From: Alphaproteobacteria bacterium
GTDB taxonomy: Bacteria; Pseudomonadota; Alphaproteobacteria; UBA6615
Length of the DNA: 64,000 nt
Assembly (NCBI GenBank): GCA_039980135.1
Contig: JBDXCV010000003.1
Span: 1,027,458-1,091,457, forward strand
Reading direction: 5' to 3'
The notes under the pieces are model-generated. The model did no database searches. It was not told the DNA's origin and saw nothing but the letters and a program-made list of their open reading frames with translations. This document shows, one piece after another, positions 188 through 56,211 of this stretch; positions within the stretch are counted from its first letter, which is position 1; every line of letters begins with the position of its first letter. The position numbers and the translations under genes were made by a program.

Positions 188-1090
188 CTAGAGCGCTTCC
201 GCGCCAGAGATAATTTCGATGAGTTCCGTGGTGATCGCCGCCTGGCGTGTGCGGTTGTACTGGATGGTCAGCTTGTTGATCATATCGCCCGCATTTCGTG
301 TCGCGCTGTCCATGGCCGTCATCCGTGCACCCTGTTCCGAGGCGAAGGATTCGAGCATCGCGCGGAAGACCTGAACCGACAGGTTGCGCGGCAGCAGATC
401 CGTGAGGATCTCTTTTTCGTCGGGTTCGTACTCGTAGGCCGCATTGCTCGCGACATCCGAGCTGTCATCCGCCGCCTCCGATTCGTCGGCCTCGGGCAGC
501 GCGAACGGAATCAGCTGCTGCGGCGTGACATCCTGAGTCAGCGCGGAAATGAACTTGTTATAAACGATCGTGCAGACATCGATCTCGCCTGCCTCGAACA
601 TGGTGCGGACGCGCTGTGCGATCTCGACGGCGGTCTCGAAGCGGGGCGCGGGACGCGCCGTATCCTCAAGGGTATCGATGATCATGCTGTCGAACTCGGC
701 GCGCAGAATGCCGCGACCCTTGCGGCCGACCATGAGTATCTTGACCTCCTTGCCGTCGGCGCGAAGAGCCAGAATTCGTTGGCGGGCCCACCGGGTGACG
801 CTGCCATTGAAGCCGCCGCACAGGCCGCGATCAGTCGTCATGATCACGAGCAGGTGGACGTTGTCCTTGCCGCTACCCGCGAGCAGCGGCGGTGCATTGC
901 CCGACGCCGCGGCACTCTCCGCGAGCGAGCCGAGCATACGCTCCATGCGCTCGGAATAGGGCCGCGCCGCAATTGCTTCTTCCTGGGCGCGGCGCAGTTT
1001 GGCAGCCGCGACCATCTTCATCGCCGACGTAATACGCTGCGTCGACTTCACGGACGCAATTCGGACTCTGAAATCCTTGAGGCTGGCCAT
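188..1090 (-). CDS. atpG: F0F1 ATP synthase gamma subunit
   Basis: 300 aa. N-terminus [37 protein letters not shown] and C-terminus ...[12 protein letters not shown] are hallmark AtpG. Lies between atpA and atpD. Confidence 0.95.
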
Positions 1091-1119
1091 CGTCTTGTCT
1101 TTACGCTCTCTGGCGGGTG

Positions 1120-2649
<1,530 letters not shown>

Positions 2650-12584: not shown

Positions 12585-12591
12585 TTTGTTC

Positions 12592-14211
12592 CTATACCTC
12601 GATCAGAAGACGTTCCGGGTCCTCAATCGCCTGCTTGATCCGGACCAGGAAGGTCACCGCCTCGCGTCCGTCGATGATCCGATGGTCATAGCTCAACGCC
12701 AGATACATCATCGGGCGGATGACGATCTCGTCATCGATTACGACCGGCCGCTTGACGATATTGTGCATGCCAAGAATGCCCGACTGGGGCGGGTTCAGGA
12801 TCGGCGTCGAGAGCATCGAGCCGAAGATGCCGCCATTGGTGATCGTAAACGTGCCGCCCGTCAGTTCCTTCATGGTCAGCTTGCCGTCGCGCGCGCGTTG
12901 GCCGTATTCGGCGATCTGGCTCTCGATTCCGGCGAAGCTCTGCTTGTCGGCGTCGCGCAGGACCGGAACGACGAGGCCCTGTTCGCCGCCGACCGCGATC
13001 CCGATGTCGTAATAGTTCCGGTAGACGATCTCATCCCCGTGGATTTCGGCATTGACCGACGGCAGCTCCTTGAGCGCATTGATCGCGGCCTTCACGAAGA
13101 TGCTCATGAAACCCAGTTTCACGCCGTGCTTTTTCTCGAAATCGTCACGGTAGCGGGCGCGCAAATCCATCACGCCCTGCATGTCGACCTCGTTGAAGGT
13201 GGTCAGCATGGCGGCGGTGTTTTGCGCCTGCTTGAGGCGGGTGGCGACGGTCTGACGCAGTTTGGTCATCCGCACGCGTTCCTCGCCGCGCGGGTCTTCG
13301 GCACGCTCCGGCAGGTCGCCTGCCGATACGAAGCCGGCGGGTGTCGCCGGCGCTGCTGCGGCGGGCGCTGCCGTGCCGCCCGATGCCGGTGTGTCGAGAT
13401 GGCGCATCACGTCACCCTTTGTGATGCGTCCGTCGCGACCGGTGGCCGGAATGGCCGAGGGGTCGAGGCCGTTCTCGTCGACCAGCTTCTGTACGGCCGG
13501 GGAGAGGGGGTAGTCCAGATTTGCGCTCGCACCGGCGGCCGGCGCGGGGGCCTCTGCCGGTTCCGCCGCGGCGGGTGGCGTGTCGGCCTGCGCGGCCGCT
13601 GCCGGGGCTTCGCCCGTCGTGAAGCGGCCGACGACCGCGCCCACCTCCACGTCGACGCCCTCGCCGGCGATGATTTCGGTCAGGGTGCCGGCGCTGGGGG
13701 CTGGCAGTTCCGCGGTGACCTTGTCGGTTTCGATTTCGACCAGCGGTTCGTCGGCAGCGAAGCTTTCGCCAACCTGTTTCAGCCAGCGGGCGATGGTCCC
13801 TTCGGTGACGGACTCGCCCAGTTCCGGAACAGTTACATCCATGGTCTCGCCGCTTGTCGCAGCCGGGGCGGCGGCTGGTTCGGCGGACGCTGCTTCCGCG
13901 GGTTTATCCGCGGCCGGCGCGCTTTCCGTTTCCGTTGGTGTTTCCTCTGCTGCGGGGGCCGCCGTGGCGGTCGCATTCTCATCGATGGAGCCGATCACGG
14001 TGCCGACCTCGACATCCACACCCTCGTCGGCGCCGATCTCCGTGAGCACGCCCGTGCCCGGTGCAGGGACCTCGACCGTGACCTTGTCGGTCTCGATCTC
14101 GACCAGGGGTTCGTCGGCGGTGACGGCCTCACCGATCGCCTTGAACCAGCGCGCAACTGTGCCCTCGGTCACGGACTCGCCCATGTCGGGCACTTTGATC
14201 TCGATGGTCAT
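12592..14211 (-). CDS. sucB: Dihydrolipoamide succinyltransferase (E2 of 2-oxoglutarate dehydrogenase) with two tandem lipoyl domains
   Basis: Start taken at the internal [13 protein letters not shown] (ATG at 14209-14211); the upstream extension in the track is Arg/Pro-rich junk. Two lipoyl-lysine motifs (IETDKV x2), an E3-binding domain, and a catalytic DHRIIDG motif. Confidence 0.9.
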
Positions 14212-14239
14212 CTCGTAATCCCCGTTGTGGTCGGCTGGC

Positions 14240-17200
14240 TCAGACGGTGAGCGCTTCGTCGACCAATTTTTCCTGTTCGCGCCGGTGACGTGCGGCATTG
14301 CCCGTGGCAGGCGAGGCCGATTCGACGCGGCCAACATATCGCGGCCGTGTGTGTTCGGCGGCGATTTCCTCGAGGACGGCCTCGAGCCTGCGATCGACAA
14401 AGGTCCAGCCGCCCATGTTCTCGGGCTCTTCCTGGCACCAGACCATCTCGGCATGCTTGAAGCGCGAAAGTTCCTCGATCAGCGCCTTGCGCGGGAAAGG
14501 GTAGAGCTGCTCGAGCCGCAGGAAGAAGACATCCTTGAGGTCGCGTTTTGCCCGCTCTTCATACAGATCGTAGTAGACCTTGCCCGAACACAGCACGACC
14601 CGTTTGACGTCCTTGTCGTCGCACAGTTTCTCATTGTCATAGAGGACGCGGTGGAAACTGGTCCCCGGTCCGAAATCCTCGAGTTTCGAGACACAGAGCT
14701 TGTGCCGAAGCAGGGATTTCGGGGTCATCACGATCAGCGGTTTGCGGAAGTTGCGCCGGATCTGGCGGCGCAGTGCATGATAGTAGTTCGCTGGCGTCGT
14801 GATGTTGCAGACTTGCATATTGTCGTCACCGCACAGCTGCAGATAGCGCTCCATCCGGGCCGAGGAATGTTCCGGACCCTGACCCTCGAACCCGTGGGGC
14901 AGAAGCAGGACCAGTCCGGACATGCGCAGCCATTTGGATTCGCCCGAGGCGATGAACTGATCGATGATGACCTGCGCACCGTTGGCGAAGTCGCCGAACT
15001 GCGCCTCCCAGAGCACGAGCGCATGGGGCTCGGCCTGGCTGTAGCCATATTCGAACCCGAGTACGCCGAACTCCGAAAGTGGGCTGTCGATCACCTCGAT
15101 CGGCGCCTGGCCGTACCGAATATTCGCCAGCGGCAGATATTTTTCCTCATGGGTCTGATCGACCAGGACCGCGTGGCGCTGCGAAAAGGTGCCGCGCCCC
15201 ACATCTTCGCCTGATAGCCGGACGGGCGTGGATTCACAGAGCAGTGTCCCGAACGCCAGCGCTTCGCCGGTCGCCCAGTCGATGCCTTTGCCGGTCTCGA
15301 TCATTTTGCGCTTGTTCTTGAGCTGGCGGAGGATCTTCGAATTCATTTCGAGACCCTGCGGGGGCTCGGAGATGGCGTGCCCGACCTCGTTCAGGAGTTC
15401 ATTGTCCACGGCCGTCTCGCCGCGGCGTTCATCGCCTTCCGCCATGCCGATATCGGCCCAGCGGCCCTCGAGCCAGTCGGCCTTGTTCGGCTTGTAGCTC
15501 TGGGCGGCCTCGAACTCCTGCTCCAGATGGGCCTGGAACTCCTCGACCATGCGATCGCCGCCACCCGCCTCGATCACGCCCTCTGCTTCGAGTTGTTGGG
15601 CGTAGAGGGCGCGCGTGGTCGGCTGTTCGGATATGGATTTGTACATCCGGGGCTGGGTGAAGGCCGGTTCATCGGATTCGTTATGTCCCGCGCGGCGATA
15701 GCCCCACAGATCCATGACCACATCGGCCTTGAACCGGTAGCGATACTCGGTCGCGATGCGCGCCACATGGACAGCCGATTCCGGATCGTCGCCGTTTACA
15801 TGGAAGATCGGCGACTGGATCATCTTGGCGACGTCCGACGAATAGGGTGAAGAGCGCGCCGCCGTCGGGTTGGTCGTGAACCCGATCTGGTTGTTGACGA
15901 TCAGGTGGAACGTGCCGCCGGTGCGATAGCCGCGCAGCTGGGACAGGTCGAGCGTTTCGGCCACGAGGCCCTGGCCGGCGAAGGACGCATCGCCGTGCAT
16001 CAGCAGGCCCATGACCTTGTCACGTTCGGAATCATTGCGCAGTTGCTGCTTGGCCCGCACCTTGCCCAGAACGACGGTGTTGACCGCCTCCAGGTGGCTC
16101 GGGTTCGGTGTCAGCGAGAGATGCACGTTGTTCCCGTCGAAGGAGCGGTCCGACGAGGTGCCGAGATGGTATTTCACATCGCCGGAGCCCATCACGTCGT
16201 CCGGGTTCGGCGAGTTTCCCTCGAACTCCGAAAACATGGCGCGAAACGGCTTGTCCAGGAAGTTGGCCAGCACGTTCAGCCGCCCGCGATGGGGCATGCC
16301 GATGACGAGTTCGCGCAAGCCCAGCTGGCCGCCGCGTTTGACCAGCTGTTCGAGCGCCGGAATCAGGGTCTCGCCCCCTTCCAGACCGAACCGCTTGGCG
16401 CCGGTGTATTTCTTGTCGAGAAATTGCTCGAAGATTTCCGCGCGTGTCAGCGCGCCGAGGATGGCCTGTTTGCCCTGCTCGGTGAATTCGGTGTGATTGC
16501 GCACGCCCTCGATGCGTTCCTGGATCCAGGCCTTCTCTTCCGGCCCCTGGATATGCATGAACTCGATGCCGATGTTACCGCAATAGGTTTCACGCACCAC
16601 ATCGATAATCTGGCGCATGGTCGCGGTTTCGAGGCCGAGCACATAGTTGATGAAGATCGGTCGATCGAGATCTGAATCCGCGAAACCGTAAGTGCGCGGG
16701 TCGAGTTCCGGATGGGCGTCGGGCTTCACCAGGCCTAGCGGATCAAGGCGCGCTTCCAGGTGACCGCGCACCCGGTAGGCGCGGATCAGCATCAGCGCGC
16801 GAATGGAATCGAGGGTCGCCCGTCGAACCTGGTCGGGCGATGCCTGGGAATCGCCGCCCGCGCCATATGAGAGGGGCGCGCCTTTCAGCGGTGCGCCGTT
16901 TGCGGCAGGAGAGATGGCCGGGGCCGCGTGGCCGTTTCCGGGGTGCGCGCCACTGGCGCCGTTTGGTCCGGCGCCGCCGTTGCCACGGTCCTCACCGATC
17001 ACGCGCGTGTCGCTGGGGGCCCAACTGGCACCGCGCAGATCTTCGAGCAGGGCGCGGGCGTCGTCATGCAATGTGGCGAAGAACTCTCCCCATTCGGGAT
17101 CGACGCTGTCCGGTTGCTCGAGATAGTTCGCGTACAGTTCCGCAACAAATGTTGCGTTGGCGCCATTCAGAAAAGAGGAGTGGCCGATATAGCTGTTCAT
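14240..17200 (-). CDS. sucA: 2-oxoglutarate dehydrogenase E1 component
   Basis: 986 aa. N-terminus [23 protein letters not shown]. ThDP-binding regions. Canonical position between sucD and sucB. Confidence 0.95.
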
Positions 17201-17278
17201 GTCCTAGCCGCGGTACGAGGCTGCGGTCCCTGGTTGCAAAGCGTTGGCGTCCCCCTCACCAACAGATCGGTGACCTAC

Positions 17279-18154
17279 CTAGCCCTTCATTGCCTTCATC
17301 ATCGTGGTGCCGAGCGCCGACGGCGACTCTGCGACCAGTATGCCCGCGGATTTCATGGCGTCCATTTTTGCATCCGCAGTGCCTTTACCGCCCGAAATGA
17401 TAGCGCCGGCATGGCCCATGCGTTTTCCGGGAGGTGCCGTGACGCCGGCGATGAACCCGGCGACCGGTTTTTTGATCTTCGACGATTTCAGGAAATCGGC
17501 GGCGTCTTCCTCGGCCGAACCGCCGATTTCGCCGATCATGATGATGCCCTCGGTCTCATCGTCCTCCAGGAACAAATCCAGGCAGTCGATGAAGTTGGTG
17601 CCGTTCACGGGGTCACCACCGATGCCGATGCAGGTGGTCTGGCCGAGCCCGACAGCGGTCGTCTGCGCGACGGCCTCGTAGGTCAGGGTGCCGGAACGCG
17701 AGACGATGCCGATATTGCCGCGCCGGTGAATATGGCCCGGCATGATGCCGATCTTGCATTCGTCCGGCGTGATGACGCCCGGGCAGTTCGGGCCGATCAG
17801 GCGTGTGTCGGAGCCGCTCAACGCGCGCTTGACGGCGACCATGTCGAGGACCGGGATGCCTTCGGTGATGCACACCACCAGCTCGACGCCTGCGTCGATG
17901 GCTTCGAGGATCGCGTCACCCGCGAACGGCGGCGGCACATAGATGACGGAGGCATTCGCGCCCGTCGTGCTGACGGCTTCGTCCACCGTGTTGAAAACAG
18001 GCAGATCGAGATGCGAGGTGCCGCCCTTGCCCGGCGTCACGCCGCCGACCATCTGGGTGCCGTAGGCGATGGCCTGCTCGGAATGAAAGGTGCCCTGGGC
18101 TCCGGTGAAGCCCTGGCAGATGACTTTGGTGTTTTTGCCGACGAGTACGGACAT
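17279..18154 (-). CDS. sucD: Succinyl-CoA synthetase alpha subunit
   Basis: 291 aa. CoA-binding N-terminus. Phosphohistidine loop GHAGAII. Confidence 0.95.
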
Positions 18155-24318: not shown

Positions 24319-24876
24319 ATGACCGACTACAACGAAAATGCCCGTGTACCGCATGTGTCGCGGGATGCGTTTCCCGCCGATCAGGTCGGTATCTACGACC
24401 ACATCATGGAAACCCGTAAGCTCGAATTCATGGCCGAACTCTTCGCCCGGATGGCCAGCAGCCCGGGCGCGCTCGAAGCGGTGGCGTCGGTCGGCGAGCA
24501 TGTCCGTTTCCACAGCGTGTTCGATGAGGTTCTGCGCGAGATGATCATCTGCACGGTCTCGAAGGAGGTCGGCAACTGGTACGAATGGACCCATCACATT
24601 CACCGGATGCCCGACGATATGCGCGCGGTGTGCGGCACGCCGGCTGCCGAGGATCTGCCCGCGCCCGTCGGCCCGGTTCTGCGTTTCTCCCGGATCGTCG
24701 CCGGCAACGGCAAGGCCGATGACGCGCTGATCGGGGAAATCCGTGCCACTCTGGGAAATCAGGGCCTCGTCGATCTGACGGTGATGGTCGGCTACTACCA
24801 GCTCATCGGCACCTTCTGCACGACGTTGCATGTGCCGATCGAAGACTCGATCGAACGCACGCCGATGCCGGACTGA
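24319..24876 (+). CDS. Carboxymuconolactone decarboxylase (AhpD-like) family protein
   Basis: 185 aa from ATG 24319 with GGAGGGG RBS; the track ORF extends further upstream. CMD-family fold with a conserved His (EWTHHIH). Confidence 0.6.
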   Translation: MTDYNENARVPHVSRDAFPADQVGIYDHIMETRKLEFMAELFARMASSPGALEAVASVGEHVRFHSVFDEVLREMIICTVSKEVGNWYEWTHHIHRMPDDMRAVCGTPAAEDLPAPVGPVLRFSRIVAGNGKADDALIGEIRATLGNQGLVDLTVMVGYYQLIGTFCTTLHVPIEDSIERTPMPD

Positions 24877-24892
24877 ACGATTCCAAACAGTT

Positions 24893-24985
24893 CGTCATAC
24901 GCGGGCTTGACCCGCGTATCTCGTGCGTCGCTGGACGGAAAACCAGAAGAGATGCCCGGAACAAGTCCGGGCATGACGGTGAAAG
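24893..24985. repeat. Intergenic double-hairpin repeat element, copy 1 (family with invariant ATGACGGTGAAAG)
   Basis: CGTCAT-[ACGCGGG cttgac CCGCGTAT]-CTC ... GAGATG-[CCCGGA a CAAGT CCGGG]-CATGACGGTGAAAG. Lies between convergent CMD and PhyH genes. Near-identical architecture recurs at 53352-53433. Confidence 0.7.
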
Positions 24986-24997
24986 GGCGGAAAACCC

Positions 24998-25801
24998 TTA
25001 CTCAGCCGCCGCGGTGTTTTCCCGGGCCAGCGCCAGCAGGCAGTCATCGTCGAGCGGTTCGATCGGCGCGAAGTCGCGGTGGGCGATCCATTCCTCGCGC
25101 TTGAACTGGCGGATGTGATTGTCCACATGGCACAGGCTGAGATAGACGATCACCCGGCCCCAGGGGCTGATGTTCGGCGCCGAAGCGTGCACCAGGTTCG
25201 AATGGAACAGCAGGACCGAGCCCGGCTTGCCTTTCGGCGCGATCATCCCGCCTTCGTCGGCGAGTCTGGCGACGGTTTCCTTGTCGAGGGTCCACAGCGG
25301 GTAGGAGGTGGTTTGCAGATCATGCCCGGCCTCGATCACGCCGCCCTTGTGGCTGCGGGGAATCAGGTAGAGCGGGCCGTTGAACTCGGTCACCTCGTCG
25401 ATGAACAGCGCGATGTTCATGGCGCGGGCCTTGGGCATCTTGTCGTCGCGCGCCCAGGTCCCGTAATCCTGATGCCATTGCCAGACGTCGCCGTCGAACG
25501 CGGCCTTTCCGTTTATCTTGTACTGGTGCATGTAGACGTTGCCGTCGAGCAGCTGCATTACCGGTTCGATCAGGCGGGGATGGCGGCCCAGGCGACGGAA
25601 CGCCTCATTGTAATAATGCGCGGCAAATGCGGTACGCACGGCCTCGCCGTTAGATTCGCGCCACACCTCGTCCCGGTCCATTGCGAAAATCGTCGGCAAT
25701 TCGGCCGCGAGGACATCCATTTCCGCCTGGCTGAAGACCTCGGGGAGGAACACCCAGCCCTCGGTGTCGAACTGTTCGAGTTGGTCCTTGGTCAGTTCCA
25801 T
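24998..25801 (-). CDS. Phytanoyl-CoA dioxygenase (PhyH) family Fe(II)/2-oxoglutarate dioxygenase, ectoine-hydroxylase-like
   Basis: Start at the internal MELTKDQLEQF (ATG 25799-25801). WQWHQDYGTWARDDKMP resembles the EctD signature WHSDFETWHxEDGMP. Several His/Asp metal ligands. Confidence 0.7.
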   Translation of the reverse strand: MELTKDQLEQFDTEGWVFLPEVFSQAEMDVLAAELPTIFAMDRDEVWRESNGEAVRTAFAAHYYNEAFRRLGRHPRLIEPVMQLLDGNVYMHQYKINGKAAFDGDVWQWHQDYGTWARDDKMPKARAMNIALFIDEVTEFNGPLYLIPRSHKGGVIEAGHDLQTTSYPLWTLDKETVARLADEGGMIAPKGKPGSVLLFHSNLVHASAPNISPWGRVIVYLSLCHVDNHIRQFKREEWIAHRDFAPIEPLDDDCLLALARENTAAAE

Positions 25802-52735: not shown

Positions 52736-53323
52736 ATGATACGCCGGATGAAAGTTTTTCTGTTCACGACCTTCGCCACACTCGCGCTTGTGATCATGGC
52801 ACCATTGGGCCTGCAGACGGGTGCGGCCGCCGATTCCGGGCCCCCGATCGAGGGTCAGGTTCAGAATTACGAGCCGTTGCCGGCCCCTCTGGTGGTCCCC
52901 GATGTGACCGTTCTGGCCCAGAAAGACGGGCCGATCACGCTCGACCGGTTCAAGGGCAAGTTCGTGGTCCTGAACTTCTGGGCGACCTGGTGCGGGCCGT
53001 GTATTCGCGAGCTGCCGTCGCTGGACCGGCTGAATGCCGAGCTGGGCGGCGAGACGGCGCAGGTGGTTCTGATCAGCCAGGATCGCGGCGGTTTCAAGCA
53101 GACCGACCGGTTCCTGAAGAAACTCAAGGTCGATTTTCCGGATAACTTCATCGATGAGCGGCTGAAATTCTCCCGCGCGATCGGGGTGGTGTCCCTGCCG
53201 ACGACCATCCTGATCGGGCCCGACGGCAAGGAATTGGGGCGCCTGGTCGGCTCTGCCGAGTGGGATTCACCCGAAGCCCTCGACCTGGTCAACTGGTACA
53301 GGGACAAGGCTGGCGACAGCTAG
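52736..53323 (+). CDS. tlpA: TlpA-family periplasmic thiol:disulfide oxidoreductase
   Basis: [10 protein letters not shown] signal/anchor. Thioredoxin motif WATWCGPC. Divergent from argH as in Bradyrhizobium tlpA. The track ORF is over-extended upstream. Confidence 0.8.
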
Positions 53324-53351: not shown

Positions 53352-53433
53352 CGTCATGCCCTGGCTCGACCCGGGCATCTCTTTATCGGCGTGTATGAGA
53401 TGGCCGGATCAAGTCCGGCCATGACGGTGAATG
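53352..53433. repeat. Intergenic double-hairpin repeat element, copy 2
   Basis: CGTCAT-[GCCC tggctcgac CCGGGCAT]-CTC ... GAGATG-[GCCGGA t CAAGT CCGGC]-CATGACGGTGAATG. Same architecture as copy 1 with compensatory stem substitutions. Between convergent tlpA and hbd. Confidence 0.7.
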
Positions 53434-53442
53434 TTTTTCTGC

Positions 53443-54315
53443 CTACCGCGTCGGGACCGGCTCGTCGCCCGAATAGTCGTAGAAGCCTCGGCCTGTCTTG
53501 CGGCCCAGCCAGCCGGCCTCGACATATTTCACCAGCAGCGGGCAGGGGCGGTACTTCGAATCCGCCAGCCCTTCATACAGCACCTGCATGACCGCCAGGC
53601 AGGTGTCGAGGCCGATGAAGTCGGCGAGTTCGAACGGGCCCATCGGGTGGTTCGCGCCGAGCTTCATGGACTTGTCGATCGAGTCCACATTCCCGACACC
53701 CTCATACAGGGTGTAGACCGCCTCGTTGATCATCGGCAGCAGGATGCGGTTGACGATGAAGGCCGGGAAATCTTCCGAAATGGTGCCGGTCTTGCCGAGC
53801 TTCTTCGTCAGTTCCTGAACTTCCGTGAAGGTATGGTCGTCCGTCGCCAGCCCGCGGATCAGCTCGACCAGCTTCATCATCGGCACCGGGTTCATAAAAT
53901 GCATGCCCATGAACTTCTCCGGCCGGTCGGTGGCCGTCGCCAGGCGGGTGATCGAGATCGACGAGGTGTTCGATGCGATCAGTGCGCTGTCTTTCAGATG
54001 CGGACAGAGGCTTTCGAAGATCTTGACCTTCGTGTCCTCGTCTTCCGTCGCGGCCTCGATCACGAGGTCGCAGTCCGAAAAGGCATCGAGCCCGGTGCTG
54101 GTCGCGATGCGGGCCAGCGCAGCCGCCTTGTCTTCTTCCGCGATCAACGTCCGCTTGACCTGACGATCCATGTTGCCGTCGATCCGGCTGAGTGATTTTT
54201 CGAGCGCGTCTGCGTCGATATCAACGATGACCACGTCATGTTCCGCGAGCGCGCAGACATGGGCGATGCCGCTGCCCATTTGGCCGGCGCCGATGACGCC
54301 TATCTTGTTCAGCAT
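53443..54315 (-). CDS. hbd: 3-hydroxybutyryl-CoA dehydrogenase
   Basis: 290 aa. IGVIGAGQMGSGIA Rossmann. 3HCDH N- and C-terminal domains. Confidence 0.9.
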   Translation of the reverse strand: MLNKIGVIGAGQMGSGIAHVCALAEHDVVIVDIDADALEKSLSRIDGNMDRQVKRTLIAEEDKAAALARIATSTGLDAFSDCDLVIEAATEDEDTKVKIFESLCPHLKDSALIASNTSSISITRLATATDRPEKFMGMHFMNPVPMMKLVELIRGLATDDHTFTEVQELTKKLGKTGTISEDFPAFIVNRILLPMINEAVYTLYEGVGNVDSIDKSMKLGANHPMGPFELADFIGLDTCLAVMQVLYEGLADSKYRPCPLLVKYVEAGWLGRKTGRGFYDYSGDEPVPTR

Positions 54316-56059: not shown

Positions 56060-56085
56060 GGGTGTATCCGCTTGTTATATGGCCC

Positions 56086-56125
56086 GTGACATTGCGGGGA
56101 TGACGGTGAAAGCCCCGTCTGTCAT
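56086..56125. repeat. Degenerate copy 3 of the ATGACGGTGAAAG repeat family
   Basis: GTGACA ttg CGGGG ATGACGGTGAAAG CCCCG tc TGTCAT. The invariant 13-mer sits here in a hairpin loop. Between etfB and the ADH gene. Confidence 0.55.
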
Positions 56126-56211
56126 GGCGTTTCCTCTTTTTTCGCACTGCAACATGCCGAACCGCCGAGAGCGAGTCAATTCATCTGCGGGGCGTTCTCA
56201 CACGGTGAGCG

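Follow-up and report, generated by a model that had tools for sequence, protein, structure and literature searches.

Double-hairpin repeats between convergent genes of an alphaproteobacterium resemble CGTC-tagged REP dimers

Results

Two double-hairpin repeats lie between convergent genes

The window analyzed here, a 64-kb stretch of alphaproteobacterial DNA with a GC content of 64%, contains two double-hairpin elements, which we termed dimer A (24893-24978, 86 nt) and dimer B (53352-53426, 75 nt). Both are located between convergent genes, as an earlier reading of this DNA from its letters alone (the sequence-only reading) had stated for two of its copies. Dimer A is found between a plus-strand ORF ending at 24876 and a minus-strand ORF of the PhyH family with its stop codon at 24998. 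The plus-strand ORF shows a weak match to the CMD family (E = 0.047) and has a coding-type GC3, unlike the antisense ORF that overlaps it. Dimer B separates an ORF of the redoxin/AhpC type (plus strand, stop at 53323) from a 3-hydroxyacyl-CoA dehydrogenase ORF (minus strand, stop at 53443), both of which have strong Pfam matches. The gaps between the dimers and the four stop codons measure 16, 19, 28 and 16 nt.

All four units of the two dimers follow the same plan of about 30 nt, which consists of CGTC, AT, 7 nt, a 5-nt loop, 7 nt, AT and CTC (Table 1). Three of the 9-bp stems are perfect and the fourth carries a single T-C mismatch. In both dimers the tags point outward and the CTC tails inward. 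The architecture described by the sequence-only reading for its copies 1 and 2 is present in both; across the family, the spacer between the units varies in length and sequence. Perfect CGTC-tagged hairpins occur three times in the window and 0.0 times in shuffled windows, and the pattern CGTCAT-N19-ATC has five matches compared with 0.81 expected. The compensatory changes between the copies, which had been taken as a sign of a maintained structure, are real. Hairpin 2 has a C-G pair in one copy where the other has G-C, and hairpin 1 differs at two pairs on both sides and by one change that breaks a pair.

Table 1. Coordinates of repeat units, spacers and flanks in the window, and of related dimers in fetched loci (L numbers). 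Bit scores refer to the covariance model described in the text.
Feature	Position	Strand	Composition and remarks
Dimer A, unit 1 (probable REP unit)	24893..24922	+	CGTC / ATACGCGGG / CTTGA / CCCGCGTAT / CTC; perfect 9-bp stem; 50.5 bits, E 4e-15
Dimer A, spacer	24923..24948	.	26 nt; predicted fold with a small CTGG...CCAG hairpin
Dimer A, unit 2 (probable REP unit)	24949..24978	-	CGTC / ATGCCCGGA / CTTGT / TCCGGGCAT / CTC; perfect stem; 50.0 bits
Dimer A, 5′ flank of unit 2	24979..24985	-	CTTTCAC (minus), GTGAAAG (plus); the non-tag part of the 13-mer
Dimer B, unit 1 (probable REP unit)	53352..53381	+	CGTC / ATGCCCTGG / CTCGA / CCCGGGCAT / CTC; one T-C stem mismatch; 45.3 bits
Dimer B, spacer	53382..53396	.	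15 nt
Dimer B, unit 2 (probable REP unit)	53397..53426	-	CGTC / ATGGCCGGA / CTTGA / TCCGGCCAT / CTC; perfect stem; 50.8 bits
Dimer B, 5′ flank of unit 2	53427..53433	-	CATTCAC (minus)
Third 13-mer site (doubtful; possible decayed single unit)	56076..56112	-	CGTCAT, 19 nt, AT spacing kept, stem lost, CTTTCAC flank; exact 13-mer
Bosea loci with spacer hairpin (examples)	L036 7359-7440; L039 5903-5984; L052; L068; L087; L092; L117		
Dimers outside Proteobacteria	L051 2408-2493; L059 4626-4717; L060, L086, L142; L061 218-312		Bacteroidetes MAG (L051); Hymenobacter (L059); Rikenellaceae (L060, L086, L142); Chloroflexota (L061)

The shared 13-mer consists of the tag and a variable flank

The sequence-only reading had based its repeat family on an invariant 13-mer, ATGACGGTGAAAG. 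This string is indeed found three times in the window, without mismatch at 24973-24985 and 56100-56112 and with one mismatch at 53421-53433. Its recurrence exceeds chance, with three matches at no more than one mismatch compared with 0.08 expected and none of 100 shuffles reaching three. However, the 13-mer is no family core: it is the reverse complement of CGTCAT, that is, the tag and the first stem pair of the right-hand unit, joined to 7 nt of flank. Calling it invariant was an overstatement: CGTCAT is the tag of the whole family, whereas the flank GGTGAA (TTCAC in unit orientation) occurs in only two of 252 units gathered regardless of their flanks (see below), both of them the window's own. 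In this set, the 8 nt preceding the tag show no conserved position. In metagenomes, a hairpin together with ATGACGGTGAA was found in at least 120 contigs, and a scan for CAAGNCCGGNCATGACGGTGAA returned at least 120 loci; the matches listed for the latter are mostly full dimers of a CCA-tailed type (...CATCCACGTC...GACGTGGATG...). The TTCAC flank is thus shared by some members of the wider family, and it marks one type of unit in this genome. The 17-mer CCGGNCATGACGGTGAA was discarded as a specific marker, since it has 33 matches in viral contigs that show no recognizable repeat context and are apparently coding.

Of the three copies that had been counted, two are complete elements, while the third site (Table 1) shares only the 13-mer and the spacing and is thus incomplete. 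Aligned without gaps, it matches a right arm with 69% identity, forms no hairpin, and folds no better than shuffled sequences (z = -0.5). A covariance model built from 147 distinct units detects the four true units at 45-51 bits and does not report this site at E≤10, so we did not accept it as a member of the family; it may be a decayed unit. The site is situated between two minus-strand genes, downstream of a Zn-ADH-like gene and 16 nt upstream of the start codon of an etfB-like (ETF-beta-like) gene. In this ETF-beta-like leader, at 56095-56127, a small CGGGG...CCCCG hairpin has the 13-mer as its loop, and the sequence CCGTCTGTCAT after this hairpin is an interrupted complement of ATGACGG.

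Hairpin stems covary in related repeats across phyla

We scanned species-representative genomes for the pattern CGTCAT-N19-ATCTC-N(5-35)-GAGAT-N19-ATGACG, in which only unpaired and terminal letters are fixed and both hairpins are left free. This pattern matched at least 120 genome loci. Most of the matches listed derive from Bosea and other Hyphomicrobiales (Microvirga, Xanthobacteraceae and unclassified Rhizobiales); others come from MAGs of Rickettsiales and Rhodospirillaceae, from Hyphobacterium, Thiomicrorhabdus, Thiohalocapsa and a betaproteobacterium and, outside the Proteobacteria, from Bacteroidota (Hymenobacter, Rikenellaceae) and a Chloroflexota MAG. Related genomes contribute at least several loci each to the matches listed, and the window alone holds four units in 64 kb.

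The 126 dimers analyzed comprise 252 units, whose stems have 75 different cores of 7 nt. At the seven unconstrained pairs, Watson-Crick pairing amounts to 94.2% in these units, compared with 58.5% if the 3′ halves are permuted among units, and 187 of the 252 stems are perfect. In a gapless alignment (A2) of the 147 distinct units, 95.8% of the cells are paired versus 70.3% after shuffling, a level not attained in any of 500 shuffles. Two-sided changes occur at each of the seven free pairs (281 cells, 78 expected), and sliding the partner by 1-3 columns reduces pairing to 24-42%. The inference of selection on a hairpin structure, drawn by the sequence-only reading from two copies, is therefore borne out by the family alignment, for the single unit. 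CTTGA and CTTGT are the commonest loops among the 252 units. The stem starts with AT in 283 of 287 units of the fetched loci, most of which were retrieved by a pattern that fixes CGTCAT.

From the complementarity of the outer and of the inner blocks, a four-way, cloverleaf-like fold had been proposed for the whole element. The blocks are complementary, but this follows automatically wherever units that share tag and tail stand in inverted orientation, so the CGTC/GACG and CTC/GAG pairings carry no independent information and the four-way form is not the selected fold. When dimers were folded alone, the minimum-energy structure was a long arm-to-arm hairpin in 109 of 127 cases, including both window dimers, and two local hairpins closed by an outer helix were obtained for only 14 of the 127. 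Copy 1 switched to a branched form when folded with its flanks, indicating that the alternative folds are close in energy. The arm-to-arm pairing is itself not preserved by evolution, as only 14 of 126 dimers have arms with identical stems; the remaining 112 are heterodimers, and the arms typically agree at 4-6 of 7 positions. Because the covariation supports only stems within a unit, we rejected the cloverleaf as the selected structure: the conserved object is the unit hairpin.

The arrangement of two inverted arms of about 30 bp in a dispersed intergenic element of 75-86 bp would also suit a MITE of the conventional type, which derives by deletion from an insertion sequence, has terminal inverted repeats and is moved by a DDE transposase. 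Around the 126 dimers, however, no target-site duplication of 2-8 nt was found beyond the permutation expectation, a result more in keeping with a single-strand mechanism than with a DDE transposase. Moreover, 112 of the 126 dimers are heterodimers, yet each arm is complementary to itself, and single units as well as pairs with tags inward also exist among the fetched loci. We consider such a MITE very improbable. Among orthologous fetched loci, a search for presence/absence junctions yielded eight indels, none of which is a clean insertion of a unit or a dimer. The nearest of the fetched loci belong to unclassified Rhizobiales, with about 70-78% nucleotide identity over syntenic genes. The intergenic region 17201-17283 of the window lacks a dimer, and three relatives (L127, 1939-2075; L109; L063) carry one at this place. 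This is a difference by gain or loss whose junction cannot be read at such divergence.

Two further observations concern subfamilies (Table 1). In Bosea, the spacer contains a conserved third hairpin, ATGACCAG-N-CTGGTTTCC or its complement, and a TCTCGGG arm is paired with a GGTCGGG arm; the same locus was obtained from different Bosea species, with the fetched DNA running in one direction or the other. Outside the Proteobacteria, dimers of the form CGTCAT...ATCTC / GAGAT...ATGACG differ considerably in stem and loop sequence, as in TGCGAGG-CTTTG-CGAAGCA and GTCGAGC-GTTAG-TCGAGAC, and they illustrate how broadly tag, tail and spacing are retained.

The repeats are positioned at gene 3′ ends

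In a rough survey of GC-rich loci, divergent gene contexts, which contain promoters, were found for 3 of 89 dimers compared with 21% of all neighboring gene pairs; the crude, home-made GC3 gene caller used for this survey mis-called both window cases as tandem, and from its orientation counts only the depletion of divergent contexts can be quoted. The description as a dispersed intergenic repeat of the REP/BIME-like kind, positioned at gene 3′ ends, is supported.

This position suggests an RNA-level element of the 3′ untranslated region as an alternative, in which transcribed hairpins would terminate transcription or block 3′ exonucleases and selection would act on the RNA structure. Both dimers lie 16-28 nt past the stop codons of convergent genes, the predicted folds are stable (z-scores of -2.3 to -5.6), divergent contexts are depleted as far as the crude caller can tell, and many REPs have been argued to be transcribed (Di Nocera et al. 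2013; PMC3733652). On the other hand, the full 9-bp stems of the window units have no T-run directly behind them, so that the GC-rich hairpin followed by a T-run typical of intrinsic terminators is not seen. The terminator consensus gave only marginal matches, which arise from partial stems and the T-rich CTC-TT tails of two units. In addition, the conservation of tag, loop and tail extends over several phyla although an RNA hairpin barrier does not need them, every dimer holds units in both orientations, and the related Neisseria motif is bound by its nuclease as single-stranded DNA and not as RNA (Chenal 2025; PMC11893778). The terminator role that had been considered is therefore not supported. 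At gathering thresholds, Rfam has no match anywhere in the window, and an E-value search around copy 1 returned only chance-level matches. An RNA element is thus an unlikely explanation for the repeats as such, while an RNA-level role could coexist with the explanation given below. A sub-threshold Rfam match to SorX, a Rhodobacter sRNA, lies over the right-hand unit of dimer A (24947-25017, minus strand; 16.8 bits compared with a gathering threshold of 46.6, E 0.068) and is probably a chance hairpin match.

The dimers correspond to a published class of tagged repeats

A superfamily of CGTC-tagged REPs has been described by Di Nocera, De Gregorio and Rocco (2013, BMC Genomics 14:522; PMC3733652). 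Its members carry a CGTC tag (or TGTC/CCTC), stems of 8-9 bp that start with AT, loops of 4-5 nt of a few major types, and an unpaired 3-nt tail with the consensus CCA. They mostly form HH dimers with spacers of mostly 20-100 bp, and heterodimers prevail in families CGTC-2 and CGTC-3. The superfamily shows a bias for Alphaproteobacteria with outliers in other phyla, has no associated transposase, and is found between convergent and same-direction genes near 3′ ends. Intergenic repeats of Neisseria as well as RPE-4/6 of Rickettsia were placed in the same class (PMC3733652).

The window repeats match this description in all four units, with the CGTC tag, a 9-bp stem whose first two pairs are A-T and T-A, a 5-nt loop and a 3-nt tail, and also at the level of the dimers, which are HH heterodimers in an alphaproteobacterial host, placed at 3′ ends and with no transposase nearby. 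They differ in their short spacers (15-26 nt compared with 20-100 typical of the superfamily) and in the tail CTC instead of the commonest CCA, a variant that does appear among the metagenome matches. The 9-bp stem combined with a 5-nt loop points to a correspondence with families 3 and 4; judged by stem and loop length alone, the window units appear to resemble CGTC-3/CGTC-4.

The same class has been reached from the side of its nuclease. In Neisseria, the 94-aa single-domain GIY-YIG protein SsnA binds the repeat NTS (CGTCATTCCCGCGMAVGCGGGAATCYRG) only as single-stranded DNA and in a single orientation; its cut falls a few nucleotides upstream of the motif, and RNA and double-stranded DNA are not substrates (Chenal 2025, Nat Commun 16:2388; PMC11893778). 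The C directly after the palindrome is most critical for binding by Ssn; the three nucleotides that precede the palindrome act mainly on cleavage (PMC11893778). NTS was generalized to Ssn-related motifs (SRM), described by a string made by hand from 29 genomes that matches 71% of the regions around ssn homologs, which are single-domain GIY-YIG genes of the cd10448 type (PMC11893778). The window units share the plan CGTCAT, palindrome, AT, C with these motifs, and all four keep the critical C 3′ of the palindrome and the GTC 5′ of it. The SRM string HGTCWYN(0-2)YYVSBRHN(0-5)WNVSBRGN(0-2)RNCYNB matches exactly only one of the four (24978-24948, minus strand), and the other three miss it on stem letters and not on architecture. 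NTS itself has a shorter stem and loop and is CGTC-1-like, and a role in natural transformation has been demonstrated for Neisseria alone. Di Nocera et al. and Chenal et al. also assign RPE-4/RPE-6 and the Neisseria dRS3 repeats to the CGTC/NTS class. Unlike the window copies, which are GC-rich and intergenic, these repeats are AT-rich, and the RPEs are often located inside genes.

We conclude that the double-hairpin repeats of the window probably are CGTC-tagged REP units in HH inverted heterodimers with the tags outside, and that they share one class with the Neisseria NTS and the Ssn-related motifs. Dimers A and B are genuine repeats, and their class is already published: every feature by which the sequence-only reading had defined a new family fits the CGTC-tagged REP superfamily (PMC3733652), which equals the NTS/SRM class (PMC11893778). 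That reading was right in spirit in seeing a structured, REP/BIME-like repeat; it erred in taking the family as new, the 13-mer as invariant and the fold as a cloverleaf.

The comparison with the GTAG-tagged REPs of Gammaproteobacteria (BIMEs and the REPIN-RAYT system) raises a further alternative, a classical REPIN, in which a REP doublet is mobilized by a RAYT, a Y1 transposase of the IS200/IS605 type. Both kinds of repeats are short tagged palindromes in inverted doublets that can form one long hairpin and accumulate in 3′ intergenic regions, and in both the hairpin is recognized as single-stranded DNA by a small dedicated nuclease. The short spacer, the arm-to-arm hairpin as the minimum-energy fold of 109 of 127 dimers and the lack of target-site duplications would all be compatible with a REPIN. 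Yet the tag is CGTC and not GTAG, the enzyme family differs (GIY-YIG instead of HUH/Y1), no Y1 transposase gene flanked by CGTC units is present in CGTC-bearing species (Di Nocera et al. 2013; PMC3733652), and the gene bracketed by units in our fetched loci encodes a GIY-YIG nuclease (see below). Mobilization by a RAYT is thus highly unlikely.

Small GIY-YIG genes adjoin units in related loci

The 64-kb window contains no Ssn-like gene detectable by tblastn. By contrast with the window, a small GIY-YIG ORF was identified by motif and tblastn searches in six of the loci that had been fetched purely by repeat patterns, and Pfam PF01541 confirmed two of them (L097, E 1e-14; L070, E 3e-13). In five of these six loci, units lie within about 55 nt of the GIY-YIG gene. 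In L097 (Rhodospirillaceae MAG JABIVD010000029.1, 1236-1785), a gene for 96 amino acids (1335-1622, minus strand) lies between a plus-strand unit (1298-1327) and a minus-strand unit (1650-1679). L211 (664-1141) shows the same order, with a unit at 748-777 (plus), the GIY-YIG gene at 818-1102 and a unit at 1112-1141 (minus). In both, the gene takes the place of the spacer of a tags-out dimer. GIY-YIG genes bracketed by such units are seen in L097, L211, L234, L161 and L170; in L234 (2377-2995) an Ssn-like gene of about 95 aa is located between a plus and a minus CGTC unit, and L097, L211 and L234 carry further units just outside the bracketed gene.

The units of L097 and L070, with ATGCCCGGA and ATACGCGGG/ATACGCGGA stems and with CTC tails, hardly differ from those of the window. 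L070 contains the same ACGCGGG/GCCCGGA heterodimer as dimer A, and the core of unit 1 of dimer A is identical to one of its units. Searches of NCBIfam and PDB placed the GIY-YIG ORFs of L097 and L070 no finer than the GIY-YIG domain; among solved structures, UPF0213 GIY-YIG proteins come closest, with an E-value of only 5e-5. The loci with the order unit, gene, unit look like the autonomous counterpart of the gene-less dimers.

A model for the repeats and their nuclease

Based on these observations, we propose the following working model. As shown above, selection acts on the single hairpin, including the unpaired CGTC tag, a loop of the CTTGA type and a tail that begins with C; the stem letters change freely as long as complementarity stays. 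By analogy to the Neisseria protein and its Wolbachia homologs in the literature, an Ssn protein (a single GIY-YIG domain of ~95 aa) may bind the single-stranded hairpin in one orientation and, in this genome too, would cut a few nucleotides 5′ of the tag, acting neither on double-stranded DNA nor on RNA. The cognate Ssn would be encoded elsewhere on the chromosome, and the dispersed dimers could be gene-less relatives of SRM-ssn-SRM units. They would persist mainly in 3′ intergenic DNA, where they are presumably least harmful, and could modulate the recombination of incoming or exposed single-stranded DNA. Any effect of a 3′ RNA stem-loop on the flanking convergent transcripts would then be secondary.

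One may go a step further and regard the dimers as non-autonomous derivatives of an IS-like element of the form CGTC unit - ssn - CGTC unit, copied or moved by the GIY-YIG nuclease via a single-stranded intermediate. This idea is derived from the ssn-like gene at the spacer position (L097, L211), the lack of target-site duplications and the TTCAC flank at the Ssn cut location, and we regard it as doubtful; whether the coincidence of the flank with the reported cut location is meaningful is a matter of speculation. If true, it would represent a transposition chemistry new for the GIY-YIG superfamily and would answer the question of the "missing transposase" that Di Nocera raised for the CGTC repeats.

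The class was published in 2013 and a partner nuclease was identified in 2025; the window holds no decisive evidence on how the repeats spread or on the role of Ssn outside Neisseria. For the window itself, the assignment averts a mistaken call of a new RNA family, and REP dimers explain the short spurious ORFs and the strong hairpins of the two convergent intergenic regions. It also joins two papers in which one kind of repeat appears under separate names (CGTC REPs and NTS/SRM). Two published claims were reproduced independently: the covariation of the hairpins over several phyla, with the stems left unspecified at retrieval, and the presence of small GIY-YIG genes adjoining the units.

The window also contains a 220-nt direct repeat of 71% identity (13627-13846 and 13990-14209), whose copies are spaced 363 nt (121 codons) apart. 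It falls within a long ORF, either 12592..14454 (minus strand) or 12586..14250 (plus strand), and is probably an internal domain duplication in a large protein.
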